Positions 39,918 through 61,034 of a DNA stretch of 64,000 bases are shown here, piece after piece. Origin of the DNA: Planctomycetota bacterium (GTDB lineage: Bacteria; Planctomycetota; B15-G4); assembly GCA_021604805.1 (NCBI GenBank), contig BQJR01000002.1, positions 133,078 through 197,077 on the forward strand. Direction: 5' to 3'. The position numbers and the translations under genes were made by a program. The first letter of the stretch is position 1. Every line of letters starts with the position of its first letter. The notes beneath the pieces were generated by a model. The model had not been told where the DNA came from, did not search any database, and saw only the letters and a program-made list of their open reading frames with translations.

Positions 39918-42386
39918 TTGACGAAGACTCGTACGCCCACGCTCCGACACGCGCTGCAAGCGGCTGGCCTCGCGTTGTTCGGCGGCGCGCTCGCTGCCCC
40001 CGACTTGCAGGCCCAGCTCGACATCATCCCTGAGCAACCGATCCTGATTCAGGCGCTCCAAACCGGGAGCACGGAGATCTTCGCGGGGCGCTCCACCTTT
40101 GTGCGCGTGCCCGTCACGCTGGTGAACGCGGTGTCGACCCCGGTGCATGTCGACGGTCTGCTGCACGTCATCGTCGACGGCGTGGAACTGCCCGACTCCC
40201 CTTACTTCTCCGACAACGGCCCGTTCCCCGCCGGCAGCTTCGGCTCGCTCGGCGCCGAGGACTTCACGCTCAACTTCATCATCGTCCCGCCCGAGTCGGA
40301 CGACGTGGTGTTGCAAGTGGAGATCAACCCGCCGGGCCCGAGCTTCGTGGCCGAGGCGAACACGGCGAACAACGTCGTGACCACGCCCTCCTTCGAAATC
40401 GGGCGCCTCAACACAGTCACCATGGCCTACGCGCCGATCGACTACCGCCCGAGCGGCGGCCCCACGCCGAACCCGCCCGACAGCGATCTGATCAAGCCGG
40501 GCGTGGGCGACAACTTCGTGCAAGGCGTGTACCCCGGTGGCCGCATCGAGTACCGCCGCATCGACACGCCCACCAAGCTGTGGACGCAATCGGTGGCGGG
40601 CACGGGCAGCACGCTCAACAACTCGCTCGCCGGCGACCTGGCGCTCATGTCGCCGCAACCGAACTTCATCTACGGCTGGATCCCCGGGAGCATCCCCTAC
40701 AACGGGCAGGCGCTGCTCCCCGGCGTGGCGTCGATGGGCAACACGCAGCCGATCCGTCACCAACGCACCTACGCGCACGAGCTCGGCCACAACACGAACT
40801 TGTTCCACAACGGTTCACAAGCCGGCGAGGTCGGCGTGGACGTGGAACGGCACCTCAACATCACCGAGTCCTTGCCGCGCATCAAAGCTCCCACGCTCAA
40901 CGACATCATGGTGGCGGGGCAGCTCACGAACACCGCGTGGATCACGAACAGCAGCTACCAGAACTCGATCAACCACTTCGCGTGGGACCCGGGCACTGAC
41001 ACCGACACCGACGCCGCTCCCGAAGGCGAAGGCGCACGCTTGATCGTGTCGGGCATGTGGAACCGTGAGACGGGTGAGATCAGCATGGATCCGATCGTGG
41101 AGGTCAACAGCGGTCGTCTCACGCCGGCGGGGCTGGCTGGCAGCCGCGACCTCGTGCTGAGTGGTTCCGTGCGCGGCGAGACGGCGCGCGAGTTGCCACT
41201 CACCGTGCGCACCAGCCTCGACGAGTGCGAAGCCTGCCGCAACACAGCGGGCCTCGAAGCTGACACCGACTCGAACGGTTTCGCGCATCCGCTGGTGGGT
41301 TTCGTGGCCGTCATCCCGGCCACCAACGCCGCTGGCGAACGCCTCGACCAGCTCTCGATCGCGGGCCTGGGCACGCACCCGGCGCAGTCGCTCACGATCA
41401 CGCGCAGCGAGTCGGTGCCCACTGTGGCCTTCCGCACGCAAGCCAGCGAGATGCTCGTGGGCGACAATCTGCACCTCGCTTGGCAAGGCAGCGATGACGA
41501 CGGCGACGAGCTCAGCTACGTGCTGCGCTACGTGCCCGACGGCGACGCCCACATGGTGCCGCTGCTCAACAACAGCAGCGCCACCAGCTTCGACGTCGAC
41601 TTCTCACGCCTGCCGCAGTTCGTGGCCGGCAAGGGTTACTTCGAGTTGCTCGCCACCGACGGCCTCAACACCACGCGCACGCGCACCGAGCCGCTGCAAG
41701 GCAACGGCGCCTACGCGGGAGGCGGCGGCAACGCGCCCTTCGTGGAGATCTACCACCCCGACAACGGCTTCCGCTTCAAGCAAGGCGCGAACATCGTGCT
41801 GCACAGTTCGGGCTGGGACCTCGAGGACTTCGCGCTCGAAGGCGAGAGCATTCAATGGACGTCCGACGTGGACGGCGCGCTCGGCAGCGGGCGTCGCTTC
41901 ACGATCAACAGCCTCACGCCGGGCGTGCACCAGATCACGGTCACGGCCACCGACTCCGGCGGCCTGATGAGTTCGCGCACGCATGCGGTCGTGGTCAGCG
42001 CGCGCGACTTGCCCGACGTGGACCGCGTGGTCTGCTCGTCGGACATCGGCTTCGGCGGACCGGGCAACGCGCAACTCAGCCTGTGTGGCGGCGACCTCAC
42101 GGCCGGCGGCTCGGCCGAGCTGCTGCTCAGCGGCGCGGCGCCCAACTCGATGGCCTTCCTGGCGATCGGGCTGACCGCCAACCCCACGCCGCTCAAGGGT
42201 GGCACCTTCGTGCCGCTGCCCTACGCCACGCTCATGCCGGGCCTCACCGACGTGAACGGTGAGATCTCCACGCCGAACGTGATGAGCGTGGGTGGCCCGC
42301 TCGCCTTCTACGTGCAGTACGTCATCGCAGACGGCAGTCAGGCGGCCGGCTACGACTTCTCGAACGCTGTGTTCGTGGAGTTCTGA
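39918..42386 (+). CDS. Secreted metzincin-like zinc metalloprotease, paralog 1, with shared C-terminal domain
   Basis: TTG start and signal-like N-terminus (LQAAGLALFGGALAAPDLQAQ). HELGHNTNLFH (HExxHxxxxxH) at 40776-40808, followed by LNDIMVAG (a possible Met-turn). It is collinear with the downstream paralog along its whole length. Confidence 0.8.
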   Translation: MTKTRTPTLRHALQAAGLALFGGALAAPDLQAQLDIIPEQPILIQALQTGSTEIFAGRSTFVRVPVTLVNAVSTPVHVDGLLHVIVDGVELPDSPYFSDNGPFPAGSFGSLGAEDFTLNFIIVPPESDDVVLQVEINPPGPSFVAEANTANNVVTTPSFEIGRLNTVTMAYAPIDYRPSGGPTPNPPDSDLIKPGVGDNFVQGVYPGGRIEYRRIDTPTKLWTQSVAGTGSTLNNSLAGDLALMSPQPNFIYGWIPGSIPYNGQALLPGVASMGNTQPIRHQRTYAHELGHNTNLFHNGSQAGEVGVDVERHLNITESLPRIKAPTLNDIMVAGQLTNTAWITNSSYQNSINHFAWDPGTDTDTDAAPEGEGARLIVSGMWNRETGEISMDPIVEVNSGRLTPAGLAGSRDLVLSGSVRGETARELPLTVRTSLDECEACRNTAGLEADTDSNGFAHPLVGFVAVIPATNAAGERLDQLSIAGLGTHPAQSLTITRSESVPTVAFRTQASEMLVGDNLHLAWQGSDDDGDELSYVLRYVPDGDAHMVPLLNNSSATSFDVDFSRLPQFVAGKGYFELLATDGLNTTRTRTEPLQGNGAYAGGGGNAPFVEIYHPDNGFRFKQGANIVLHSSGWDLEDFALEGESIQWTSDVDGALGSGRRFTINSLTPGVHQITVTATDSGGLMSSRTHAVVVSARDLPDVDRVVCSSDIGFGGPGNAQLSLCGGDLTAGGSAELLLSGAAPNSMAFLAIGLTANPTPLKGGTFVPLPYATLMPGLTDVNGEISTPNVMSVGGPLAFYVQYVIADGSQAAGYDFSNAVFVEF

Positions 42387-42499
42387 GCCTCGCCCGTTGA
42401 ACCCGGCGCGGAGTCGGGACGCCCCCGACTCCGCGCCGCAGTCCCGCCGTCCCGATGTGCACGCTCCCTGCCGTTCCCGCCGCTGACCCCGAGGCTCTC

Positions 42500-44929
42500 A
42501 TGCGCTCCTTCACCGCTTCCCTGTTCGGCCTCGCGCTGACCTCCCTGATCGCCGCGCCGCTGAGCGCTCAGAGCATCGACTTCACCGTGTCCGACGTGGT
42601 GCTCGTGCAAGTGTTCCAGAACGGCAACACCGAACTCATCGCCGAGCGCCCGATGCAGCTGCGCGTGGGCGTGGACGTGCAGAACCAGACCAACCCCGTG
42701 AAGAAGATCGACGCCTTCGTGCGCGTGTTCGTGGACGGCGTGGAAGCCGCCGACTCGCCGATCTTCTCGAACAACGGCCCCTTCAACGCCACCGGCAACT
42801 TCCAGCCGAACCTCGGCGCCAGCTCGCTCAACTTCACCTACATCCCGCCGCTGTCGAACGACGTGGTCTTCCAAGTGGAGATCAACCCGCCGGGACCGAA
42901 CTTCGTGCCCGAAGCCGACACCGGGAACAACAGCTTCAGCACCGCGCCGCAACAGTTCCGCAACCAGGATCGACTCGAGTTGGCCTACGCGCCGATCGAC
43001 CTGCGTCCGGGCGGCGGCGGCACGCCGAACCTGCCGAACAACAACCTGATCAAACCGGGCGTGGGCGACAACTTCGTCCAAGGCATCTTGCCCACGGGCT
43101 CGATCGAGTACCGCCGCATCGACGCACCCTCGAAGCTCTGGACCGGCTCCGTGCAGGGCACAGGTTCCTCGCTGAACAGCTCACTCACGAACGACCTGTT
43201 CCTGATGAGCCCGCAGCCCGACTTCATCTACGGCTGGGTGCCCGGCTCGCTGCCCTACAACGGGCAAGCCTTCCTCAACGGCAAGGCGTCGATGGGCAAC
43301 ACCGAATCGATCCGTCATCAGCGCACCTACGCGCATGAGCTGGGTCACAACTTCGGGCTCGGGCACAACGGTGAGAACAACGGCAACTTCGGCCTCGACG
43401 TCGAGCAACACCTGTGGCTCACCGAAGGTCTCGGCAAGCAGAAGGCCGACTCGCTCAACGACATCATGGTGGCCGGGCAGCTGACCAACACCGCGTGGGT
43501 CTCGCCGAACACGTTCAACTTCATCAAGGGGCAGCCCGAGTTCACGCCCTCGCCGGCGCCGACTCCCGGTGACGAGGATCCGCCCGTCGACCGCGTGCTG
43601 ATCGGCGGCATCTGGAACCAGGAGACGGGCACGATCGCGCTCAACCCCGTGCTCGAAGTGCCGCGCACGACGCGCGGCAGCGAGCCGGCCGCGCTGGGCA
43701 CGCGCGACTTGCTCGTGCGCGCCTACGCCGGCGAACGGCTGGTGCGCGAGTTTCCGCTGAGCGCGCGCAGCACCGGCGATGCCTGCGTCGACGAGACGCA
43801 GCACTCCGACAACGACGCGCACATCGAAGCCGACCCGAACGTGGGCTTCGCGGCGCTGATCCCGGCGCGTGGCCTCGACGGCGCGCGCTACGAGCGCCTC
43901 GAACTCGTGAGCCTGGGTGCGCAGGCGCAGCCCGTCACGCTCACGCGCAGTGCCCACGCGCCGGAAGTGCGCTTCCTCACGCCGCGCGCGAAGGAGCCGC
44001 TCGGTGCGCAGGTGGAGGTCAGCTGGGAAGCCAGTGATGCCGACGGCGACGAGCTCTTCAGCACGCTGCGCTTCATCCCCGACGGCGACGACCACATCGT
44101 GCCGCTCGTCGTGCACAGCACCGAGACCTCGCACCACGTCGACCTGTCGCGCTTGCCGGACTTTCGCGCGGGCGCCGGCTACTTCGAGTTGCTCGTCACC
44201 GACGGGTTGCGCACCACGCGCGCGCGCAGCGCCCCGCTCGAGGGCAGCGGCGCCTTCGCGGGCGCCGGCGGCAACCCGCCCTTCGTGGAGATCTACCATC
44301 CCGACGACGGCTTCCAGTTCCGCAAGGGCATGAACGTGATCCTGCACAGCTCGGGCTGGGACCTCGAAGACCACCGTCTCGACGGCATGAGCATCGAGTG
44401 GAATTCGGATGTCGACGGCGTGCTCGGTCACGGACGCCGCTTCACGTACACCGACTTGAGCGTGGGTCCGCACGTGATCACCGTCACCGCCACCGACTCC
44501 GGCGGACAGATGACCTCGCGCAGCAACGCGATCATGATCAACGACCGCGACCTCCCCGAAACCGAGCCCGTGTTCTGCGCCACCGACCTCGGCTTCGGCG
44601 GACCGGGCAGCGCGCAACTGAGCTTGTGCGGCGGCGATCTCACCTCGGGCGGCACCGCCGAACTGCTGCTCACCGACGCGCCGGCGCTCACGCCCGCCTT
44701 CTTCGTGGTGGGCCTCAACAACAGCCCGGTCTTCGTGAAGGGCGGCACCGTGGTGCCCTTCCCGTACACCTCGCTGCTCACGCGCATGACGGACGCCGCA
44801 GGTGAGATCTCGAACTCCGGGATCACGAGCCCCGGCATCCCACTCACGATCTACGTGCAGTACGCCATCGTGGATGGAAGCCAGCCCGCGGGCTTCGGCT
44901 TCTCGAACGCGCTCGAAGTGGAGTTCTGA
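42500..44929 (+). CDS. Secreted metzincin-like zinc metalloprotease, paralog 2, with shared C-terminal domain
   Basis: ATG 42500 (MRSFTASLFGLALTSLIAAPLSAQS). HELGHNFGLGH at 43334-43366 is a perfect HExxHxxGxxH motif, followed by LNDIMVAG. Many blocks are identical to paralog 1 (LIKPGVGDNFVQG, IEYRRID, PYNGQA, HQRTYAHELGHN, YFELL.TDGL.TTR, PFVEIYHPD.GF). Confidence 0.85.
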   Translation: MRSFTASLFGLALTSLIAAPLSAQSIDFTVSDVVLVQVFQNGNTELIAERPMQLRVGVDVQNQTNPVKKIDAFVRVFVDGVEAADSPIFSNNGPFNATGNFQPNLGASSLNFTYIPPLSNDVVFQVEINPPGPNFVPEADTGNNSFSTAPQQFRNQDRLELAYAPIDLRPGGGGTPNLPNNNLIKPGVGDNFVQGILPTGSIEYRRIDAPSKLWTGSVQGTGSSLNSSLTNDLFLMSPQPDFIYGWVPGSLPYNGQAFLNGKASMGNTESIRHQRTYAHELGHNFGLGHNGENNGNFGLDVEQHLWLTEGLGKQKADSLNDIMVAGQLTNTAWVSPNTFNFIKGQPEFTPSPAPTPGDEDPPVDRVLIGGIWNQETGTIALNPVLEVPRTTRGSEPAALGTRDLLVRAYAGERLVREFPLSARSTGDACVDETQHSDNDAHIEADPNVGFAALIPARGLDGARYERLELVSLGAQAQPVTLTRSAHAPEVRFLTPRAKEPLGAQVEVSWEASDADGDELFSTLRFIPDGDDHIVPLVVHSTETSHHVDLSRLPDFRAGAGYFELLVTDGLRTTRARSAPLEGSGAFAGAGGNPPFVEIYHPDDGFQFRKGMNVILHSSGWDLEDHRLDGMSIEWNSDVDGVLGHGRRFTYTDLSVGPHVITVTATDSGGQMTSRSNAIMINDRDLPETEPVFCATDLGFGGPGSAQLSLCGGDLTSGGTAELLLTDAPALTPAFFVVGLNNSPVFVKGGTVVPFPYTSLLTRMTDAAGEISNSGITSPGIPLTIYVQYAIVDGSQPAGFGFSNALEVEF

Positions 44930-45030: not shown

Positions 45031-45639
45031 GTGCCACGCCGTGTCCGCGCCTCTCCTCACGCCACCGTTGCAGCCTTGAGTCCCTCGTCCGAACCTGTGA
45101 ACGGGAACGGCTCGAGCGATTCGCAGCCGTCGCAAACCGAGCTCCAAGAGCTCGTGCCGCAGCTGTATGAGGCGTTGCACGAGATCGCGGCGGCGCAGCT
45201 CTCGCGCGAGCGCGCGGGCCACACCTTGCAGGCCACGGCCTTGGCCCACGAGGCTTACCTGCGCTTGAGCACGCAGCATCAACCGCCCACCCACAGTCGC
45301 GAGCACTTGCTGGCGGCGGCTTCGGTGGTGATGCGTCGCGTGCTCGTGGATCACGCACGCGGCCGCGGCGCCAAGAAGCGCGGCGGCGACCGTTTGCGGG
45401 TGGAGTTCCACGAACCGTCGGCCGGCCTCAACCATGATGTCGACGTGTTGGATCTGCACGAGGCGCTCGAGAACCTCGAGAGCCTGAACCATCGCCAGGC
45501 GCGCGTGGTCGAGCTGCGGTACTACGGTGGCTTGAGTGGCGACGAGGTCGCGCGCGTGCTGGGCGTGTCGCCGCGCACCGTCGACAACGACTGGCGCGTG
45601 GCCCGCGCCTGGCTCGCCGCACGGCTCGACGGCGGATGA
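45031..45639 (+). CDS. ECF-type RNA polymerase sigma factor (kinase-associated type)
   Basis: LVPQLYEALHEIAAAQLSRERAGHTLQATALAHEAYLRL and a C-terminal HTH (RQARVVELRYYGGLSGDEVARVLGVSPRTVDNDWRVARAWL). The exact start is uncertain (GTG 45031). Confidence 0.8.
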   Translation: MPRRVRASPHATVAALSPSSEPVNGNGSSDSQPSQTELQELVPQLYEALHEIAAAQLSRERAGHTLQATALAHEAYLRLSTQHQPPTHSREHLLAAASVVMRRVLVDHARGRGAKKRGGDRLRVEFHEPSAGLNHDVDVLDLHEALENLESLNHRQARVVELRYYGGLSGDEVARVLGVSPRTVDNDWRVARAWLAARLDGG

Positions 45640-45640
45640 G

Positions 45641-48172
45641 ATGAGCTCCGGCGGCCTCAGCGCGCGTCACGAGCGAGTCGGCCAGATCTTCCTCGGCGCC
45701 GCGGAGCTCGAGGGCGAGGCGCGCGAGCGCTTCTTGCAAGAAGCCTGTGCCGACGACGCCACCCTGCGCGCCGACGTCGAGCTCATGCTGCGCCACGACG
45801 ACCCCACCGCCCTAGAGGGCGCGCGTCACCGGCGCGGCGTGCCGTCGGCGGCCTCGCTGCTCACCCCCCCCGACGACAGCACACCCAACGAACACGTGGA
45901 CGGCTTCGAGCTGCTGGAAGTGCTCGGCCACGGCAGCATGGGTGTGGTGTACCTCGCGCGTCAGCAGCATCCCGAGCGCGAGGTCGCGCTGAAGCTCTTG
46001 CACCCGAGCTTGCTGGGCAGCAGCGCGGCGAAACGCTTCACGCGCGAGGTCCAGTTCCTCGCGAAGCTGTCGCACCCGGGCATCGCGCAGATCTACGGCT
46101 CGGGCATGCACGCGAGCGAAACCGGCGAACGCCCGTACCTCGTGATGGAACACATCCGTGGGCTGCCGCTCACCGACTACGCGCGCGAAGCGCGGCTCGA
46201 CACCGTGGAACGCCTGCAGCTCGTGCGACGCGTGTGTGCAGCGGTGCAACACGCGCACGAACGCGGCGTGGTGCATCGCGACCTCAAGCCCGCGAACATC
46301 TTGGTCACCGAGTCGGGTCAACCCAAGTTGGTGGACTTCGGTGCGGCCGGCGCCATGGACATCTCGCGCCAGACACGCACGATGCTCACCGCCACCGGCG
46401 AGTGGATCGGCACGGTGGCGTACATGAGTCCGGAGCAGTGGGACGCGTCGCGGCACGGTGTCGACGAACGCGCCGACGTGTACGCGTTGGGCGTGATGCT
46501 CTACGAGCTGCTCTCGGGCAAGCAGCCGCACGACCTGGGCACGCGTTCGCTGCCCGAGGCGCTCAAACTGCTGCAGGAGAAGGAGCCCGAGCCGCTCTCG
46601 CGCATCGACCGACGCCTGGCCGGCGACATCGAGACCCTGGTGAACACCGCCATGGCCCGCGACCGGCGCAAGCGGTACGCGTCGGCGCGCGAACTCGCGC
46701 TCGACCTGCAGCGCTATCTCGAGGCCAAGCCACTCTCTGCGCGCCCGCCCGGCTTCGCGCAGGTGCTCGGTCAACGCATCCGTCGTCATCCGGTGTTCAG
46801 CGCGGTGCTCGCCAGCATGTTGATCGGCATCACGGCGTTCGCCTTCGTGCAGCGCGCCCACAGTGACGAGATCGCCAAAGAGCTGCAGCACACACGCCAG
46901 GTGTCGGAGTTCGTGGCGCGCTTCATCAAGTCGCAGCCCGACCAATACTTCGCCAGCGAGGAAACGGTGCAGCAGATGCTCGAGCGCGCCGAGGAGTTCG
47001 TCACGGAAGCGGCGGTGTCGCCGGTGGTCGAGGGCGGCTTCCGCGTGCTCGTGGGGAACGCCTACCGCATGCACGCGCCGACCAAGCTCGACGACGCGGA
47101 GCAGCACATCGCGCGCGGCGTGGAGCTGCTGGTGCAGGCGCACGGCGAACGCGACCGACGCAGCCTGCAGGCGCTGCTCGACCTGGTCACCTTGCAGATC
47201 GAACGCATGCGCTTCGAAGAAGCCGAGCAGCAACTCGCGCTGCTGGAGGCACGGCTCGTGGGCGCACCCGACGCTGCGGGCCTGCGCCTGCGTGCGGTGC
47301 ATCGGCGCGGCATGCTCGCTGAACGTCGCGGAGACACGGTGGCCATGCGCGCGGCCTACGAACGCGTGGCTCGGATCGGGCCGAGTGTCCTGCCGCTCGA
47401 CGACCGGGCTTTGCGCGACGCCATCCTGCGACTCGCAGAGCTCGACCTCGATCAGGACGGCCTGCAACGGGCCACAGAGTACGTGGCGCGTTGCGAAGCC
47501 GAGCTCGGCGAGGCACACCCCGTCACCCTGGGCACGCGCCTGGCTTGGGCCAACGTGCTGCGCGGACGCGGCCAACGCACCGGCGACACCAGCCTGCTCC
47601 ACGAGTCGCTGGCCCTGATCGAAGAGAACGCGCGCATGACGGACGCCCAGCTCGGCGCCTGCGCGCCGCGCGCCATCGAAGCCTGGATCGAAGTCGTGTC
47701 GCTGCACGCCGACCTGGGCGCCCTCGACCTGGCCGAGAGCGTGATGCGCGACCAGTTCGAGCGCTGCCCGAGCACGCCCGAGCGCACGCGCATCAGCGCC
47801 ATGCGGCACTGGACCCTCGGCAACTTGCTGCTGAGGCAGATGCTCGTGACCGAGGCGCACGAGGAGCTCGCTGCGGCCTACGCGCACTTGCCCGAGAACC
47901 CGGCCGACGACCCGCGCCTGCACGTGATCATCATCCTCGACATGGCACAGACCCTGCGCTCCACCGACCGCATCGACGCCGCCATCGAGCACCTGCGCGA
48001 GGCCCACGAGCTCACCACGCGCCTCATGGGCGAGGGACATCGCTACACGCAGCGCGTGTCTCGCCGACTCGAACGCTACGAAGCCGTGCTGGCCGGAGCC
48101 GTCGTCGAACCCAGCGACGCGACCTTGGAAGACCCCGAGCAGCTGAGCGCGAACGCGGACTCCGACAGCTGA
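45641..48172 (+). CDS. Ser/Thr protein kinase with C-terminal TPR-like repeats
   Basis: Starts at ATG 45641, 2 nt after the sigma stop (MSSGGLSARHERVGQIF). Kinase motifs GHGSMGVVY, VALKLL, HRDLKPANIL, DFG and YMSPEQ. A TM helix (VFSAVLASMLIGITAFAFV), then ~400 aa of helical repeats. Confidence 0.9.
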   Translation: MSSGGLSARHERVGQIFLGAAELEGEARERFLQEACADDATLRADVELMLRHDDPTALEGARHRRGVPSAASLLTPPDDSTPNEHVDGFELLEVLGHGSMGVVYLARQQHPEREVALKLLHPSLLGSSAAKRFTREVQFLAKLSHPGIAQIYGSGMHASETGERPYLVMEHIRGLPLTDYAREARLDTVERLQLVRRVCAAVQHAHERGVVHRDLKPANILVTESGQPKLVDFGAAGAMDISRQTRTMLTATGEWIGTVAYMSPEQWDASRHGVDERADVYALGVMLYELLSGKQPHDLGTRSLPEALKLLQEKEPEPLSRIDRRLAGDIETLVNTAMARDRRKRYASARELALDLQRYLEAKPLSARPPGFAQVLGQRIRRHPVFSAVLASMLIGITAFAFVQRAHSDEIAKELQHTRQVSEFVARFIKSQPDQYFASEETVQQMLERAEEFVTEAAVSPVVEGGFRVLVGNAYRMHAPTKLDDAEQHIARGVELLVQAHGERDRRSLQALLDLVTLQIERMRFEEAEQQLALLEARLVGAPDAAGLRLRAVHRRGMLAERRGDTVAMRAAYERVARIGPSVLPLDDRALRDAILRLAELDLDQDGLQRATEYVARCEAELGEAHPVTLGTRLAWANVLRGRGQRTGDTSLLHESLALIEENARMTDAQLGACAPRAIEAWIEVVSLHADLGALDLAESVMRDQFERCPSTPERTRISAMRHWTLGNLLLRQMLVTEAHEELAAAYAHLPENPADDPRLHVIIILDMAQTLRSTDRIDAAIEHLREAHELTTRLMGEGHRYTQRVSRRLERYEAVLAGAVVEPSDATLEDPEQLSANADSDS

Positions 48173-55129: not shown

Positions 55130-55164
55130 GCGCGCGCGGAGCAACGTGCTCGCCCGACGCTACA

Positions 55165-55232
55165 CCCCGACTGCCGCCGCGCTCCACGCCGACTGCCGCC
55201 GCGTTACGCCCCGACCGCCGCCGCGCTCCACA
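55165..55232. repeat. Three tandem ~20-24-nt copies of the terminal coding sequence of the aconitase-family gene (CCGAC[TC]GCCGCCGCG[CT]T[CA]C[AG])
   Basis: ccgactgccgccgcgctccacg / ccgactgccgccgcgttacg / ccccgaccgccgccgcgctccaca, read directly. The third copy is the start of the left direct repeat. The intact gene has a single copy at 58951-58970. Confidence 0.75.
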
Positions 55233-55637
55233 TCCCCGCCGTGTAGCTCGCGATCTTTCCTTCGATCGCCGACACGCTGACTTGCTCGGTGGTTTCCGAC
55301 ACGCCGGGGCCGCAGCCGATGCACGCGCCGCAGCCCGGGTTGATGATCGTGACGCCGGCGGCCTTGAAGGTGTCGAGCCAGCCGCGCTCTTCGGCGACGC
55401 GTTGCGTGGCCTCGCTGCCGAACTGGATGAAGAACTCCACGCCGTCGGCGACTTTCTTGCCCGCGGCGACGGCTTCGCTCATCACGCGCGCGTACATCTC
55501 GAAGTCGTCGACCTTGCTGGCGGTGCACGAACCGCCGTAGGCGATGTCGATGAACACATCGCCGAGATCGTCGACGATGGCTGCGTTCGTCGGGTCGCTC
55601 GGGATGCCCTTGTTGGGGTCACCGGGGTGCGCCACCA
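55204..55637 (-). pseudogene. Displaced 3'-terminal fragment of an aconitase-family gene (duplicate of 58942-59453) with a 78-nt internal deletion
   Basis: The translation VAHPGDPNKGIPSDPTN...YGGSCTASKVDDFEMYARVMSEAVAAGKKVADGVEFFIQFGSEATQRVAEERGWLDTFKAAGVTIINPGCGACIGCGPGVSETTEQVSVSAIEGKIASYTAGMWSAAAV matches the last ~170 aa of the 58942-60933 product. It lacks the first ~500 aa and the 26 aa NRNFQGRSGPGKLYLASPLTVAASAI. The N-terminal 20 aa of ORF 55204..55707 are unrelated junction sequence. Confidence 0.85.
55213..55637. repeat. Left direct repeat (DR-L) flanking the low-GC island
   Basis: 425 nt. By-eye alignment to 58951-59453 gives roughly 90% identity. Identity is highest near the gene's stop and decays toward the island. 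A 78-nt gap lies between two gatcgc microhomologies. Confidence 0.85.
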
Positions 55638-55750
55638 GCGGCCACTGCGTGGCCAGGCAGAGGACTCGACGGCTGCGGTTGCTTGCTCGTCGAGCAACAC
55701 TCACCATTCAAGACTCGATGCAACCAGCAATCCAACAAGCAAAGGGTCAT

Positions 55751-57157
55751 TCAATCAAAGAGGAGCAGCTGGTTCTCGTGGCTGCCGGAGCGAACAGAAA
55801 TCCACTGCGCCAACTCCGCAGCACGAAATCCGGATCGACTAAGGCGCTTTCCACGCCCGGGATTAGCAATCCCGACACAAACCCCAGCCAGCATTAGAGC
55901 TCGAGTGCATTCGATTACGTTCTTGTCTATGTGCTCGATGTCACCATTAAAGTTTACCGGATGACCACGAGACATCAGTGTAAAGCGATGCCCATCATCG
56001 TCTTTGCAGATATAGTCACCGAAAACTTTTGCATAGCGCGAACTCGGCGAGTCCACAGCACGCCACGCGGGCGAGAGCTCCAACTCGGGCATCTCCAAGA
56101 GCCCCCGATACTCGACGTCGGAGGACGACACACTTGCGAGGAATAGCGGCTTTGAATACCCCCACTTATGGAGCATCGCGACACCAGCCGAACCACCTGA
56201 CACCTTCCCCGTCGCACCGATTACTACCCAGTAATCCACTGACCGATGAGCTAGTGGCTGAATGAGATGTGAGCGTTGCAATAGCTGCACGCGAGATGCA
56301 TCACGATCGAGCCCTACAACCGAAGCAGCTCTATCAGCCAAACCCTCGCAGGTGGCCGCACCAATTGCTCCAAGCCCAACAACAACTACACCAGCCTGAG
56401 CCAATCGACAATCATATATTGCAAGTCGGTTTTCGATCTCACGCAGGCTCGCCTCGGCGATTGCTCGAGCTTCATACCTCCGCTTCCATCGAGTTCTCGC
56501 TGGAGCGAGGAAAGAGGAATCTTTGGAGATACCCCCTTCGGCGCGCATTCGCCTGAATGAATCAAGCATCTCTACACCGCTAGTCGTTTGCTCAATCACA
56601 ACAACCCTAGCGCGAATGCCAGCATTCTTGACCGACTGCCCCAGGATCCCTCCATCATCAAGCACAATCAAGCAATCGACATCAGATCCCTCATGCACCC
56701 GTACAGCACCTTCATCAACCACATCTCGAGCTACGGACTGTAAGGCATCGCCTGTCGGCATTCTCGCCATGGACGCAGCATAGTCATCCGGTTGATCAAT
56801 AACTGTGCAGCCCCAGCGCCGCAGGACCTGAACCACAAAGGGGTGCGCCGAGTACGGTTTTGTTCCGAGCACACAACGACTTGGCTCCAATCCCAGTTTC
56901 AGCAATGCTGCGACAAGCGGAAGCTGCGACGCGAGACAGTGCTGCATCCCCACGAGCACGCAACGCTTTAATGAGACTTTTGAATAGGTCGCTAGCACCT
57001 GCCCCAGCATGGGCATGCGGTAGGCATCTAGAAGTGCGCGTTCGGCAACCTCGGCAAGAGCAGGATTCGCGAGCGTTCGCTGAGCCCAGCACTCTCGCTG
57101 CAAGACGACTGACGGGTAGTCAGGCTTCATTGACAGACTTTTCATCAGCATCCTCAC
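55751..57157 (-). CDS. Divergent S-adenosyl-L-homocysteine-hydrolase-fold NAD-binding protein (island gene 3)
   Basis: 468 aa. Block-wise collinear with SAH hydrolase: RMPMLGQVLATYSKVSLKRCVLVGMQHCLASQLPLVAALLKLG versus EMPGLM..Y...[37 protein letters not shown] versus LDDGGDL; EQTTSGV versus EETTTGV; VVVVGLGAIGAATCEGL...VVGLDRD versus VAVVAGYGDVGKGCAQAL...VIITEIDP; SSSDVEY versus GHFDVEI; SRGHPVNF versus AEGRLVNL. The start is ambiguous: GTG 57157, or ATG at 57151, 57145 or 57130. Confidence 0.75.
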   Translation of the reverse strand: MRMLMKSLSMKPDYPSVVLQRECWAQRTLANPALAEVAERALLDAYRMPMLGQVLATYSKVSLKRCVLVGMQHCLASQLPLVAALLKLGLEPSRCVLGTKPYSAHPFVVQVLRRWGCTVIDQPDDYAASMARMPTGDALQSVARDVVDEGAVRVHEGSDVDCLIVLDDGGILGQSVKNAGIRARVVVIEQTTSGVEMLDSFRRMRAEGGISKDSSFLAPARTRWKRRYEARAIAEASLREIENRLAIYDCRLAQAGVVVVGLGAIGAATCEGLADRAASVVGLDRDASRVQLLQRSHLIQPLAHRSVDYWVVIGATGKVSGGSAGVAMLHKWGYSKPLFLASVSSSDVEYRGLLEMPELELSPAWRAVDSPSSRYAKVFGDYICKDDDGHRFTLMSRGHPVNFNGDIEHIDKNVIECTRALMLAGVCVGIANPGRGKRLSRSGFRAAELAQWISVRSGSHENQLLLFD

Positions 57158-58523
57158 TCGGAGAAATGCCTATCCCGTAATTCTTGCCGAGCTCGCAGTA
57201 AAGGGAAGCCAACTCAGCCAAATACTCCTGCAGCTTGCGAGCGTCTCCAACAATCGATTCAATTGGAAGCGCAGGCTCACTCGCGAAGTCAATCGTCAAG
57301 CACACTGGGCAACCACGGCGCGAGCTGCGTGAAGTCCAGTTCTTGTCCGGCACACCAAGAATGGCGACGATGCCGATCATGCGCTCCTCGAACCATCTAG
57401 CTACCTTTTCATCACCTTCAAGTCGGTAGTATAGAATCTCCTCACCCGCTTTTCCAAGACAGCGTACAGCAACGGGCTCCTGAGGATCGTCAAAAGGATC
57501 CTCATCATCTGCACCCTGAAAAACGAACCAACGCCGGGTAGGAAGCGGAAACGCTGGCTGCAGAAACTGCCTAAGTCGAAAGTCTCCCTCGCGCTCTAGA
57601 GGCTCAATGTAGGTTCGAGCATTCAGTGATTTAGAAACACCCCAAACCGTTGCACTACAGGCGTACCTATCGATTGAAACGGCGGCGTACGCGATTTTCT
57701 GCAGCAAAGCCCGCCAGTACATTCCAAATACGTTTGATGCTTCGGAGGAATCTTCTGAACCTGAAGCATCTTGGAGGTACGCCCGAAACCCTTTCAAGAA
57801 TGCGCTTGAAGGTGATAGCTCGCCCGCAATCTCTTCAAACAGCGTTTCAACCGAGCGCCTTGCAATGGGCGACCGGCGAATCCCAGCGAACAGGACTTCA
57901 CCCGCTCGGGTAGAGCGGCTCGCTGCGAGATGCGCCTCGGCCTGAACGGCAATCACGCAGTTACGCTTGAGATCTATCAGAGGCACGCCACTGAATGACC
58001 TCTCAGCGAGGACCTTGTCAGTGACGACCACAGCGTCGTACTCAGAAGTCACCTGACTGACGGGGCGGAGTTGAGGTTTCGACTCATCACTAAAGGCAAG
58101 AAGCGCAAAGTCGCCCGCGACACATGCCTTCACTCTCTCAGTTGAGAGCCTCTCAATCGAAAGCGCCTGGCGCTCGCCCGGGGATGCCGCTGAGTCACCC
58201 CCCTTCACATTCGGAGGGTGAGAGTCAAGCTTAAGCACTGCAAAATCTACATAGTGAGGTCCGAACTTGCGATAACAGACCTCCTCGACAGTGAACCCGA
58301 TCAAATCATCTGCTTGATCGGGGAATCGCACTTTGAGGTCGCGGTTAATTGCGTTTCCAAGTGCAAACAGGTGACCTGGTGCAACAACCCGATGAGCTCC
58401 CTGATCACGCCCACCTCCCAACCGAGCGAGCCAGCAGTGACAAATTCGCCGCCCACCATCAACAACAGTGCCCTCTGCTGTGACTTCAACTAACTCGGCA
58501 AGCGAATAGGAAATATTATCCAC
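57120..58523 (-). CDS. Trypsin-fold (S1/Trypsin_2-like) serine protease with an unassigned ~250-aa C-terminal domain (island gene 2)
   Basis: 467 aa. Candidate catalytic triad in canonical order and context: His in VVAPGHLFALGN, Asp in VDFAVLKLD, Ser in ERSFSGVPLIDLKRNCVIAV (the GxSGxP position). I recognise no family for the region from about aa 215 to the end. Confidence 0.75.
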   Translation of the reverse strand: MDNISYSLAELVEVTAEGTVVDGGRRICHCWLARLGGGRDQGAHRVVAPGHLFALGNAINRDLKVRFPDQADDLIGFTVEEVCYRKFGPHYVDFAVLKLDSHPPNVKGGDSAASPGERQALSIERLSTERVKACVAGDFALLAFSDESKPQLRPVSQVTSEYDAVVVTDKVLAERSFSGVPLIDLKRNCVIAVQAEAHLAASRSTRAGEVLFAGIRRSPIARRSVETLFEEIAGELSPSSAFLKGFRAYLQDASGSEDSSEASNVFGMYWRALLQKIAYAAVSIDRYACSATVWGVSKSLNARTYIEPLEREGDFRLRQFLQPAFPLPTRRWFVFQGADDEDPFDDPQEPVAVRCLGKAGEEILYYRLEGDEKVARWFEERMIGIVAILGVPDKNWTSRSSRRGCPVCLTIDFASEPALPIESIVGDARKLQEYLAELASLYCELGKNYGIGISPSEDADEKSVNEA

Positions 58524-58836
58524 CGGTAACCTGCCACTGTGCTCGAATCCTCACTGCCCCCGTTCCTCCGCACTTAATGATCCACTTCATTCCGGTTTCA
58601 CACGAAAGCTCCGCACCGAGTTCAACTTCAAGTGAAGTCGGACGAATGCCACTTGCATGCCCCACTGCGGCCGAACCGATTCTATGCACCAAACCCGCCA
58701 AGACTTGACCGATCTCTCCAAGTCGTTCGGGATTAAGTGAAGCCGCTCCGCTTTCAGCAGTTGCAACCCGCCCATCGGGGCTGGCTTGCTCGATCAGAAC
58801 GTCGACACCGTCGATGCACATTGACACGTACTGCAT
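58516..58836 (-). CDS. Small trypsin-co-occurring (Trypco / CU044_2847-like) protein (island gene 1)
   Basis: 106 aa with a GGAGGA RBS 5 nt upstream of the ATG. The pattern VDVLIEQAS...(~45 aa)...RPTSLEVELGAELSCETGMKWIIKCGGTGAVRIRAQW resembles, from memory, small proteins encoded next to trypsin-like proteases. It overlaps the protease start by 8 nt. Confidence 0.6.
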   Translation of the reverse strand: MQYVSMCIDGVDVLIEQASPDGRVATAESGAASLNPERLGEIGQVLAGLVHRIGSAAVGHASGIRPTSLEVELGAELSCETGMKWIIKCGGTGAVRIRAQWQVTGG

Positions 58837-58941
58837 CCCATCCTCCGTTAAACGTCCCCGTCCTTGCCCCTCCAGGTTTGAGCCAGCGCAGGATAGCAGA
58901 CCATTTGAGGAGGGGACCTAAAGCCACTCAGCGCCCCTCGA

Positions 58942-60933
58942 TTACCTGACGACCGCCGCCGCGCTCCACATCCCCGCCGTGTAGCTCGCGATCTTTCCCT
59001 CGATCGCTGACGCCGCCACCGTGAGCGGCGACGCGAGATACAGCTTGCCCGGCCCCGAACGCCCTTGGAAGTTGCGGTTGATCGCCGACACGCTGACTTG
59101 CTCAGTGGTCTCCGACACGCCCGGCCCGCAGCCGATGCACGCGCCGCAGCCCGGGTTGATGATCGTGACGCCGGCGGCCTTGAAGGTGTCGAGCCAGCCG
59201 CGCTCTTCGGCCACGGCTTGCGTGGCCTTGCTGCCGAACTGGATGAAGAACTCCACGCCGTCGGCGACCTTCTTGCCCGCGGCGACGGCTTCGCTCATCA
59301 CGCGCGCGTACATCTCGAAGTCGTCGACCTTGCCGGCGGTGCAGGAGCCGCCGTAGGCGATGTCGATGGCCACGTCGCCGAGCTCGTGCACGAAGGCGCC
59401 GTTGGTCGGGTCGCTGGGGATGCCGGCGTTCGGGTCACCGGGGTGCGCCACCATCGGGCGCAGCGTGGACAAGTCGATCGTGTGGACGCCGCCGTCGTAG
59501 ACCGCGCCTTCGTCGGGGGCGACGAGCGCGGCCATGAGCTCGGCCTTGCTGCGCGCGTCGCTACGGTTGGCGAGGATCCAGTCGACGAGCGCTTCGTCGC
59601 CCTCGCAGATGCCCGACTTGGCCGTGCACTCGGTGGCCATGTTGGCGAGCGTGGCGCGTTCGTCGAGCGACAGCTTCGCGAGGCCGGGGCCGCCGAACTC
59701 CATCATGCGATCGAGCGTGACCTCGTGCTTCGCGTACTTCTCGAGGATGTGCAGCATCACGTCTTTCGCCGAACAGTCGGCGGGCAACTCGCCCACCAGC
59801 TCGAAGCGCACGCTCTCGGCCACTTGCACGAAGGTGCTGCCCGACGCGATCAAGGACGCGTACTCGGTGGCCCCCACGCCGTAGGTCAGCGCGTTGTTGC
59901 CGCCGCCCATGCAGGTGTGACTGTCGGTGGCTTGGATGAAGTCGCCCGGATCCACGAAGTCGCGGCGCGCGACCTCGTGACAGATGCCGGGGCTGATGCC
60001 GTCGCGGCTCTGGTAGTCGCGCACCCCAGTGTGCTGCATGAACTCGGTCTGCAGCTCGCGCAGCGTGCCGATCTTGTCGGCGAAGGGCATGAAGCGCTTC
60101 ACGCCGTCGGCATACAGCAGGTGGTCTTCGAAGACGGCGAACTTGCTCGCGTCGGGCAACGTGTAGTCGTTCCCGTACTCGCGACGTAGGAACTCGTGCA
60201 CTTGCGCGGTCGTGAACTCGTGGCTGTAGCCGCCGTCGACCTTGGCCATGAGCGCGTCGCCGGGCTTCACGTAGTCGCCCTCGCCGATCATGTGCGCGGC
60301 GATCATCTTCTCGCCCATCGTCATCGGGCGCTTCGGCGTGCCGGGCGCGGGCACACTGATCTCGCCGGCCTTGAGCGCCTTCGCGAACGGGAACAAGCCG
60401 CCCATCTCCAACATGATCTTGGTGACGGGGTCGTAGCGCCCGGTGAACTCGTCGATCTCGATCGACTCACCGGCCTGCAAGCGCGCGAGCTGCGCGTGGT
60501 CGCCCATGAGCTGCCCGAGGTTGATGTTGTTGCGCTCGTGGATCGGCGCGAAGGACGCCGCGAACACGTATTTGATGCCGCTGAACTTCTCGCACTGCGG
60601 CGCCGTCTCGCGCGAGCTGCCGGTGCCTTTGCGGTAACCGCTCACGATGGCTTCGAAGTTGCCGTCCATGAGGCCGCGCTCGGGGATCACGCGTTCGCCG
60701 TCTTTGAGCAAGCCGGCGTAGGCGTTGAGCGCGATGTCTTCGGGGCGGTGACTGAAGCACACCCAGGCCGGGGTCATCACGTCGGTGTTGATGTCGTCGA
60801 GCAGGTCGTCGACCGAGAGGTCTTCCATGCGCAGGTTCAGCTCGCCGCGCACTTGCTTGGCGATCAGGTCGAGGTCCTTGGTGAGGAACAAGACGCGCTT
60901 GGTCGGGTCGAGCTGGATCGTGCGAGCGGCCAT
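58942..60933 (-). CDS. Aconitase/3-isopropylmalate-dehydratase family protein, swivel (LeuD-like) domain N-terminal to catalytic domains
   Basis: Starts at an internal ATG (MAARTIQLDPTKRV) of ORF 58942..60996. Swivel-domain motif GTGSSRE...ASFAPIHERNNINLG. Catalytic motifs ATDSHTCMGG, YGGSCTAGK, NPGCGACIGCG and SAINRNFQGRSG are intact. Confidence 0.88.
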   Translation of the reverse strand: MAARTIQLDPTKRVLFLTKDLDLIAKQVRGELNLRMEDLSVDDLLDDINTDVMTPAWVCFSHRPEDIALNAYAGLLKDGERVIPERGLMDGNFEAIVSGYRKGTGSSRETAPQCEKFSGIKYVFAASFAPIHERNNINLGQLMGDHAQLARLQAGESIEIDEFTGRYDPVTKIMLEMGGLFPFAKALKAGEISVPAPGTPKRPMTMGEKMIAAHMIGEGDYVKPGDALMAKVDGGYSHEFTTAQVHEFLRREYGNDYTLPDASKFAVFEDHLLYADGVKRFMPFADKIGTLRELQTEFMQHTGVRDYQSRDGISPGICHEVARRDFVDPGDFIQATDSHTCMGGGNNALTYGVGATEYASLIASGSTFVQVAESVRFELVGELPADCSAKDVMLHILEKYAKHEVTLDRMMEFGGPGLAKLSLDERATLANMATECTAKSGICEGDEALVDWILANRSDARSKAELMAALVAPDEGAVYDGGVHTIDLSTLRPMVAHPGDPNAGIPSDPTNGAFVHELGDVAIDIAYGGSCTAGKVDDFEMYARVMSEAVAAGKKVADGVEFFIQFGSKATQAVAEERGWLDTFKAAGVTIINPGCGACIGCGPGVSETTEQVSVSAINRNFQGRSGPGKLYLASPLTVAASAIEGKIASYTAGMWSAAAVVR
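58951..59453. repeat. Right direct repeat (DR-R), part of the intact aconitase-family gene
   Basis: 503 nt, equal to DR-L plus the 78-nt segment missing in DR-L. Confidence 0.85.
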
Positions 60934-61034
60934 GGTGAACTCCCGGGTCGTGTGCAGGTGCGCGCCTCGATGCTCGGCGGCGCGTGCCGTGGTCACGCGC
61001 GGTGAACACGCGCGAGGTGCTGCCCTGACATGCC

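Follow-up and report, generated by a model that had tools for sequence, protein, structure and literature searches.

What is the role of a gene that joins a protease-like half to a half without a recognizable sequence family, and that lies between two overlapping genes in a small, apparently foreign island? This question is raised by a locus in a 64,000-nucleotide (nt) stretch of the genome of a Planctomycetota bacterium of lineage B15-G4 (GenBank assembly GCA_021604805.1, contig BQJR01000002.1, positions 133,078 to 197,077 of the forward strand; this whole stretch is denoted the window, and coordinates are given along it). The open reading frame (ORF) in question, 57120..58523, had been described in an earlier reading of the DNA, made from the letters alone (the sequence-only reading), as a trypsin-fold protease fused to a domain of no known family. 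It is indeed uninterrupted and encodes 467 amino acids (aa) from a GTG start, on the minus strand, and the peptides quoted in that reading are all present (APGHLF at residue 48, DFAVLKLD at 93, SFSGVPL at 176, and the C-terminal strings as well). The gene is the middle one of three on the same strand; it overlaps by 8 nt an upstream gene of the Trypco1/Pepco family and by 38 nt a downstream gene for a relative of S-adenosylhomocysteine hydrolase (SAHH). Because a protein that is protease-like in one half and GAF-like in the other thus sits between a Pepco effector gene and an SAHH relative, it is most likely to be the sensor-and-trigger component of a three-gene, Pepco-type anti-phage cassette acting by abortive infection, a reading to which a probability of about 60% can be assigned.

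That the 467-aa ORF is a real gene and not a chance ORF follows from an exhaustive phmmer search over 1.84 billion representative proteins, in which a 295-aa metagenomic protein, P0003, matched residues 172-442 with an E-value (E) of 8e-16. Searches with the whole protein against Pfam (E<=1), NCBIfam, PADLOC and, by phmmer, the PDB returned no family or match, and a word-indexed protein search returned nothing beyond the query. The protein ends in a short acidic tail, as had been noticed earlier (residues 452-467, 57123..57170, minus strand; predicted to be disordered, with a predicted local distance difference test score, pLDDT, below 50); 5 of its last 14 residues (SPSEDADEKSVNEA) are acidic.

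The upstream gene (58516..58836, minus strand), the stop of which provides the 8-nt overlap with the GTG start of the protease-like gene, encodes a 106-aa Trypco1/Pepco-family protein, a putative pore-forming effector. It matches Pfam Trypco1 (PF19493; E 1.7e-8, 35.4 bits with a cut-off of 24.6, residues 9-102) and scores 20.9 bits with NCBIfam CU044_2847, under the cut-off of 23. The gene is present in a single copy in the genome and has a GGAGGA Shine-Dalgarno motif 6 nt 5′ of its ATG. The names Trypco1 and Trypco2 were given to two domains found together with trypsin-like peptidases in conflict systems (Kaur et al., 2020; PMC7159879); both have since been renamed Pepco (Evans et al., 2025; bioRxiv 10.1101/2025.11.14.688446). 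According to the latter study, a Streptomyces Pepco is a pre-assembled 9-10-mer beta-barrel that forms a membrane pore once the adjacent trypsin-like protease has cut off a C-terminal tail of ~2 kDa after Ile97; the 117-aa protein is cut between I97 and R98 and loses a 20-residue tail. The proteases linked to Pepco are described there as fused to diverse sensors, and in the system studied the protease is fused to Avs4, which is triggered by phage portal proteins (Evans et al., 2025; 10.1101/2025.11.14.688446).

The pairing of Trypco1 with a protease recurs well beyond this locus. Trypco1 is found in 7/401 genomes sampled from the phylum, the source genome included, and at four of the six other loci the next gene encodes a Pfam Trypsin_2 protease (E 1.6e-11 to 1.2e-8) with a long C-terminal extension, which in one of the four is NB-ARC. 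Among plasmids, 40 records have a Trypco1 match, and 9 of the 10 that were inspected encode a protease of the same type directly after Trypco1 (seven annotated genes and two unannotated ORFs with the same motifs); on an Acaryochloris plasmid the two genes likewise overlap by 8 nt. Judging from these gene orders, a domain of the kind found in the N-terminal half appears to be encoded almost always directly downstream of Trypco1/Pepco genes. At the two remaining phylum loci (Trypco1 genes at L005:1471-1800 and L009:1444-1821), no protease lies downstream within ~1.5 kb; beyond one of these genes lies an ORF of no recognised kind, and the other faces an opposite-strand ORF that is, by eye, reverse-transcriptase-like. 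On two cyanobacterial plasmids (L021:3001-5071 and L023:2001-4114), Trypco1 and protease genes overlapping by 8 nt and 4 nt are followed by MoxR/AAA ATPase genes and, at one of the two loci, an FGE-family gene as well, which is the published ternary arrangement and is not seen in the island of the window.

The N-terminal half itself (residues 1-215; 57879..58523, minus strand) can be described as a divergent Trypsin_2-like protease domain, and its relationship to trypsin-fold proteases of the Trypsin_2 type is supported by a custom profile together with a structural lead. The profile, built from 12 Trypco1-adjacent proteases, scores residues 1-215 at 14.9 bits, with the alignment extending over residues 91-200, and places them at rank 1/2001, the best of 2000 composition-matched shuffles reaching 5.2 bits; an earlier profile of eight protease sequences gave 11.4 bits, compared with 7.7 for shuffles. 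When the data for the 12 proteases were compared with the domain by hhalign, the match had a probability of 55% (E 1.2e-4), and smaller alignments of four and eight proteases produced a local match at the Ser motif only, with probabilities of 25% and 9%, respectively. The structural lead, which is to be read as a lead only, is the ESM Atlas model, which resembles Trypsin_2 clusters over residues 1-219 and 1-379 with template modelling (TM) scores of 0.65-0.66 (by target). Weighing against the assignment, residues 1-215 match no Pfam family at E<=10; Trypsin_2 (PF13365), searched over the source genome at E<=10, has seven matches, none of them at the 467-aa ORF; NCBIfam, PADLOC and phmmer against the PDB yield no match to the domain; and an AlphaFold2 model of residues 1-221, for which the input was a single sequence, is unusable (pLDDT ~25). 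The sequence-only reading had let its trypsin fold stand or fall with profile evidence for an S1/Trypsin_2 relationship: taken literally it would fall, as standard profiles are empty even at E<=10, but the targeted 12-protease profile, along with the Atlas lead, supports the relationship.

Two of the three residues expected of an active enzyme are in place. The 12-protease profile aligns Asp93 (DFAVLKL; codon 58245..58247, minus strand) with the catalytic Asp column of the family, that of DvAvLel / DLALLKI, and Ser178 (SFSGVPLIDLKRNCVIAV; codon 57990..57992, minus strand, within SFSGVPL) with the catalytic Ser column of GfSGaP, making them the putative catalytic Asp and nucleophile. P0003, the sole homologue that reaches the latter motif, keeps it as G-L-S-G-A-P; no homologue extends to the His and Asp of the proposed triad. 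The third residue is less secure. A canonical His/Asp/Ser triad had been read from the sequence with His51 as its first member, and this part of the claim probably does not hold. Within the segment His51...Asn57 (58353..58373, minus strand), one and the same register was chosen by MAFFT, by hhalign (global and low-mact), by a hidden Markov model (HMM) of the His region and by an ungapped scan with a position-specific scoring matrix (PSSM). In this register GAHRVVAPGHLFALGNAI aligns to GAGxLVxxxHVVTCAHVV, so that Asn57 occupies the column that is His in 12/12 family members, and His51 falls six residues upstream of the catalytic column, where the family varies and 6/12 members have His. The PSSM window score for the Asn57 register, 16.4, is reached by 29/5000 shuffles, and when everything upstream of the Asp is modelled as one HMM, the target ranks 293/5001, short of significance; together these alignments argue moderately to weakly for the Asn57 register. 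In an alternative register, an 8-residue hairpin insertion places His51 on the catalytic His column, giving it (in RVVAPGHLF) a context like the classical hVVTAAHC. On balance, the canonical catalytic His is rather more probably missing than present. In addition, position -2 of the nucleophile in the G-x-S-G motif, Gly in 11/12 profile sequences, is Ser176. With Asn probably on the His column and Ser in place of Gly, the protease may be non-canonical or inactive, its catalysis possibly lost, which speaks against a trigger that works by cleavage.

The uncertainty of the catalytic His is the reason for retaining two rival readings. According to the first, the trypsin-fold domain lacks its catalytic His and acts as a switch without catalysis, holding a short-tailed Pepco in the manner of an antitoxin and releasing it on a cue received by the GAF-like domain. 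Asn57 on the invariant His column in several alignment methods and Ser176 in place of the family Gly would fit this reading, as would the substrate: in the family alignment, the 106-aa Trypco1 stops 5 residues past the conserved Trp and is nearly tailless, compared with ~19-20 residues past this Trp in some plasmid homologues and with the 20-residue tail of the studied Pepco, and the shortness of the tail also weighs against the main reading. The Asn57 register, however, is not statistically secure in view of the rank of 293/5001, His51 can be fitted to the classical His context, and the Asp and Ser motifs are well kept; other Trypco1 proteins with equally short tails adjoin apparently active proteases, and literature searches found no precedent for sequestration. 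All told, a switch without catalysis seems unlikely.

The 106-aa Trypco1 has R96-I97-R98, with the same numbering as the I97/R98 cut site of the 117-aa Streptomyces Pepco. The Streptomyces protein, which may be of either Trypco1 or Trypco2 type, did not yield to alignment with the 106-aa one, so that the shared R-I-R may be a coincidence and is best regarded as a curiosity; the column of the cut-site Ile is mostly Val in the Trypco1 alignment.

The C-terminal half is, by sequence, close to an orphan. Besides the query itself, the relatives of the domain among the representative proteins are P0003 and P0005 only. P0003 starts at the Ser motif and is therefore probably a truncated gene call. P0005 is a metagenomic protein of 469 aa (E 3.5e-4) in which the motifs of the domain (EREG.F, LGIP, G.PLCLT.DF) occupy the same C-terminal position, at residues 296-464, behind a head that belongs to Abhydrolase_1 (E 1.9e-7) or Abhydrolase_6 (9e-7) and not to the trypsin fold. 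As the same domain is thus carried behind an alpha/beta-hydrolase head, it can be considered a module attached to different hydrolases. A profile search for longer forms of the domain found the query and P0005 only. A further match, P0004, a 1769-aa Ig/PKD-repeat protein (E 7.8e-5, 11 stretches), was dropped from the alignments as a likely artefact of repeats or composition. Within the phylum the domain family is confined to the source genome (1/401), and no locus encoding it was found in genome contigs, metagenome contigs, viral contigs, plasmids (searched by tblastn) or the 400 other phylum genomes. Aligned with one another, the three domains are 27-31% identical, with 25 columns invariant, and have in common the motifs WRxxLQKxAYA, D..S...WG, LEREGDFRFRQF, G...LGIP and GCPLCLTIDF. 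The most conserved of these, LEREGDFRFRQF (residues ~308-319), comes behind strand 2 of the sheet in the model.

Structure comparisons assign a fold to this half, which had been thought to lack any known family; by sequence that description stands, with no matches in Pfam, NCBIfam, PADLOC or the PDB, but by predicted fold residues ~221-451 (57171..57863, minus strand) very probably form a GAF-like domain, with a poorly modelled insert of ~70 residues at ~311-384. In the full-length AlphaFold2 model (mean pLDDT 43), residues 221-300 and 400-450 reach a pLDDT of 65-85. Two AlphaFold2 models were compared with 48,161 PDB chains by VIA-align, a method independent of Foldseek, and the top 50 rows were considered for each. 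For the full-length model these rows are nearly all GAF or GAF-like ligand-binding domains (Z 10.9-8.1), including those of phytochromes, phosphodiesterases, NtrC-type regulators, PtsP, fRMsr and CodY and the LuxR ligand-binding domain, with a few others under other names, and the alignments span nearly whole domains (150/152, 155/168 and 163/177 residues, the last with 3k2n_B). The domain-only model (pLDDT 58.5; predicted TM score, pTM, 0.62) gives a similar GAF list (Z 9.7-7.1), the exceptions including an MglB roadblock-fold chain at rank 47. The neighbours of an independent ESM Atlas model of residues 221-455 are mostly GAF, GAF_2, NifA-type and ANTAR-GAF clusters (TM 0.47-0.56). Because both AlphaFold2 models and the Atlas model place the C-terminal half with GAF domains, it is taken to be GAF-like and a putative ligand sensor.

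A number of observations limit this assignment and should be set against it. The models are shallow, being based on 3-sequence alignments with mean pLDDT values of 43 and 58, and residues 311-384 are left unmodelled; the Z values of 9.7-10.9 are modestly above the background of 7-8 stated for the tool. Foldseek, which the sequence-only reading had suggested for this half, returned GAF rows too when run against the PDB, none of them significant (nothing at E<=0.001, best 0.039). No Pfam family, GAF, GAF_2 and GAF_3 included, matches residues 215-467 at E<=10.

The GAF fold typically binds small molecules, and GAF domains serve as cyclic nucleoside monophosphate (cNMP)-, bilin-, haem- and metabolite-binding sensors in phosphodiesterases, phytochromes, NifA/NtrC-type regulators, CodY and fRMsr. 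The predicted domain resembles them in its N-terminal helices, antiparallel sheet and long C-terminal helix, with nearly whole-domain alignments at Z 8-11; it differs from them in matching none of the three Pfam GAF families, in the ~70-residue insert at 311-384, and in being fused to a protease or alpha/beta-hydrolase head instead of a kinase, cyclase or DNA-binding output. The earlier proposal that the appended domain is the sensor or specificity module of the island is in keeping with its sensor-type fold and with its occurrence in P0005 after a hydrolase head of another type; the sensor role as such would have to be deduced from these features. A shared fold alone shows no function, and the domain might instead be a GAF-shaped protein-protein module that dimerises the protease or docks to the SAHH-like protein or to a phage protein, with a protein as the trigger, as in Avs systems. 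The lack of a Pfam GAF match and of a recognisable ligand motif is compatible with this possibility, and the Avs4-protease of the studied Pepco system is itself described as triggered by phage portal proteins (Evans et al., 2025; 10.1101/2025.11.14.688446). Conversely, GAF is listed among the nucleotide-binding modules of such conflict systems (Kaur et al., 2020; PMC7159879). The most conserved motif of the family, LEREGDFRFRQF, moreover follows the second strand of the sheet in the model. In classical GAF domains, the ligand pocket forms after this strand. A purely protein-binding function is thus given little credence.

The third gene (55751..57157, minus strand), the start of which overlaps the end of the protease-like ORF by the 38 nt, encodes a 468-aa protein that had been recognised by eye as having an SAHH fold, and this identification is borne out by the PDB. 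A profile of two sequences, the 468-aa protein and its one database relative P0006, finds 5tov_A as the best match (E 1.3e-6, residues 47-330 with 17-273), and 27/28 distinct PDB sequences at E<=1e-3 are adenosylhomocysteinases. The protein is thereby a remote homologue of SAHH with both the substrate-binding and the NAD-binding Rossmann domains. With the normal SAHH encoded at another place in the genome, the 468-aa protein is collinear over both domains, sharing DDGG, E-x-T-T-x-G, the SVTK-type Lys, GxGxxG and TG; unlike SAHH, it does not match the AdoHcyase models of Pfam, where weak Rossmann matches are the only ones, and the FDN and GHFD segments of the normal enzyme are replaced by YEA and SSSD. 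Given these replacements and the lack of an AdoHcyase match, hydrolase activity is doubtful, and the comparison suggests that this is probably a non-canonical, partly degenerate SAHH-fold protein.

The functional link between this protein and the protease-GAF gene is open to an objection. In another genome of the phylum (G324, L033:2947-4266) there is a full-length, 439-aa homologue of the SAHH-like protein (25% identity, E 6e-15) that adjoins a DUF1223 gene and unknown ORFs, and no Trypco or protease gene is present among its tested neighbouring ORFs; the association with a protease-GAF gene has accordingly been seen only once, which counts against a functional tie. The family is absent from the viral contigs searched. 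The region of the NAD domain also has matches inside very long stop-to-stop ORFs at L034:5727-10283 (G371) and L035:5167-7998 (G224), neither with a Pfam family.

Taken together, the three genes, and no others, make up a low-GC island of 3.2 kb (55700..58900; GC ~0.50-0.59, compared with 0.63-0.71 in the flanks) that most likely is a horizontally acquired, foreign cassette. The island is bordered on one side by an intact aconitase-family gene (684 aa, 58942-60996, minus strand) and on the other by a 167-aa ORF (55204-55707, minus strand) in which the 3′ end of that gene recurs as a broken duplicate. Direct repeats of this 3′ end, 95-97% identical, bracket the island at 55212-55563 and 58950-59379, in two blocks that differ in spacing by 78 nt (3738 and 3816). 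A scan of the island for promoters and terminators gave no score above shuffles, and the sequence of the island is present in two DNA runs of one study, either of which could be its origin, with no RNA run listed. Near its edge, at 55158-55231, a 22-nt unit occurs in triplicate.

The position of the island between duplicated gene ends, with no recombinase present, raises the second of the rival readings prompted by the uncertain His, namely that the three genes are what remains of a transferred defence module and no longer function, in which case relaxed selection would account for the divergence and for the missing His. The singleton status of the cassette points the same way, the domain being found in 1/401 phylum genomes and having two true relatives among the representatives, as does the probable loss of the catalytic His. 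Against decay stand three intact ORFs with tightly overlapping start and stop codons, the good Shine-Dalgarno motif of the first gene, and the 25 columns that are invariant among the three GAF-like domains at an identity of 27-31%, which argue for purifying selection on this domain family. A decaying relic is accordingly regarded as improbable.

If the locus is instead a working cassette in which the 467-aa protein is both sensor and trigger, its operation can be envisaged as follows. In the resting state the GAF-like domain would hold the protease domain off. A cue linked to infection would act on the GAF-like domain; in the simplest case this cue would be a small molecule, perhaps one of nucleoside type that the neighbouring SAHH-like protein binds, produces or removes. 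The target of the protease domain would then be Pepco, the product of the gene directly upstream, already assembled into a beta-barrel, and Pepco would permeabilise the membrane and kill the infected cell. In this scheme we infer the sensing of a ligand, the tie to the SAHH-like protein and the cleavage of Pepco. A bolder version would make the locus a new kind of defence by small-molecule signalling, in which, during infection, a compound of nucleoside type is bound, produced or broken down by the SAHH-like protein and read by the GAF-like domain, and the trypsin-fold domain, perhaps without its His, frees the Pepco pore by cleavage or release. This is a long shot, but if true it would provide a new pair of signal enzyme and receptor for the logic of CBASS, Thoeris and Pycsar systems, and might represent the first non-catalytic regulator of Pepco with a protease fold.

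With the known modules of Pepco, protease and sensor (PMC7159879; 10.1101/2025.11.14.688446), the locus shares a small Trypco1 gene that directly precedes and overlaps the gene for a trypsin-fold protease. This protease likewise has a C-terminal non-protease domain and Asp and Ser motifs that can be aligned to the family, and the cassette is situated in a foreign island. The differences are equally clear. The sensor here is predicted to be GAF-like, whereas in the known modules it is a STAND/Avs NTPase (nucleoside triphosphatase), FGE, a vWA-MoxR partner or a peptidoglycan-binding domain. The proteins of the island have no AAA, vWA or NB-ARC domain detectable with Pfam, so that the island is without an NTPase and, unlike the ternary vWA-MoxR (VMAP) or the STAND/Avs systems, has no MoxR AAA+, vWA or STAND NTPase component. 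The third gene is of the SAHH type; the protease is too divergent for Pfam, with Asn probably on the column of the catalytic His; and the Trypco1 of the window is almost without a C-terminal tail, unlike the studied 117-aa Pepco, which loses one of 20 residues. No description of a cassette combining trypsin-like, GAF, Pepco and SAHH components was found in literature titles and abstracts, the supplements of the Evans preprint being covered only in part.

Of the defence modules that include a protease, those with Pepco rank with the most abundant, and few types of sensor have been described for them so far. To these the locus adds a compact, NTPase-free version with a putative GAF-like sensor, one of three known members of its sequence family, along with the reuse of this domain on an alpha/beta-hydrolase; its signal partner may be a degenerate homologue of SAHH. 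Should the GAF-like domain bind a metabolite, this would be a small and tractable system in which to study the gating of a suicide pore by a small molecule, and the probable change of His to Asn makes it a test case for whether the control of Pepco always needs proteolysis.

Elsewhere in the window, at 39918-42386 and 42455-44929 (both on the plus strand), there are tandem paralogues of 822 and 824 aa with signal-peptide-like starts and a common HELGHN motif, which is presumably zinc-metallopeptidase-like. They are followed at 45031-45639 (plus strand) by a 202-aa ORF that is, by its translation, sigma-factor-like and overlaps the start of an 878-aa ORF (45536-48172, plus strand), the translation of which has protein-kinase-like motifs (HRDLKPANIL) and a long tail of helical repeats.

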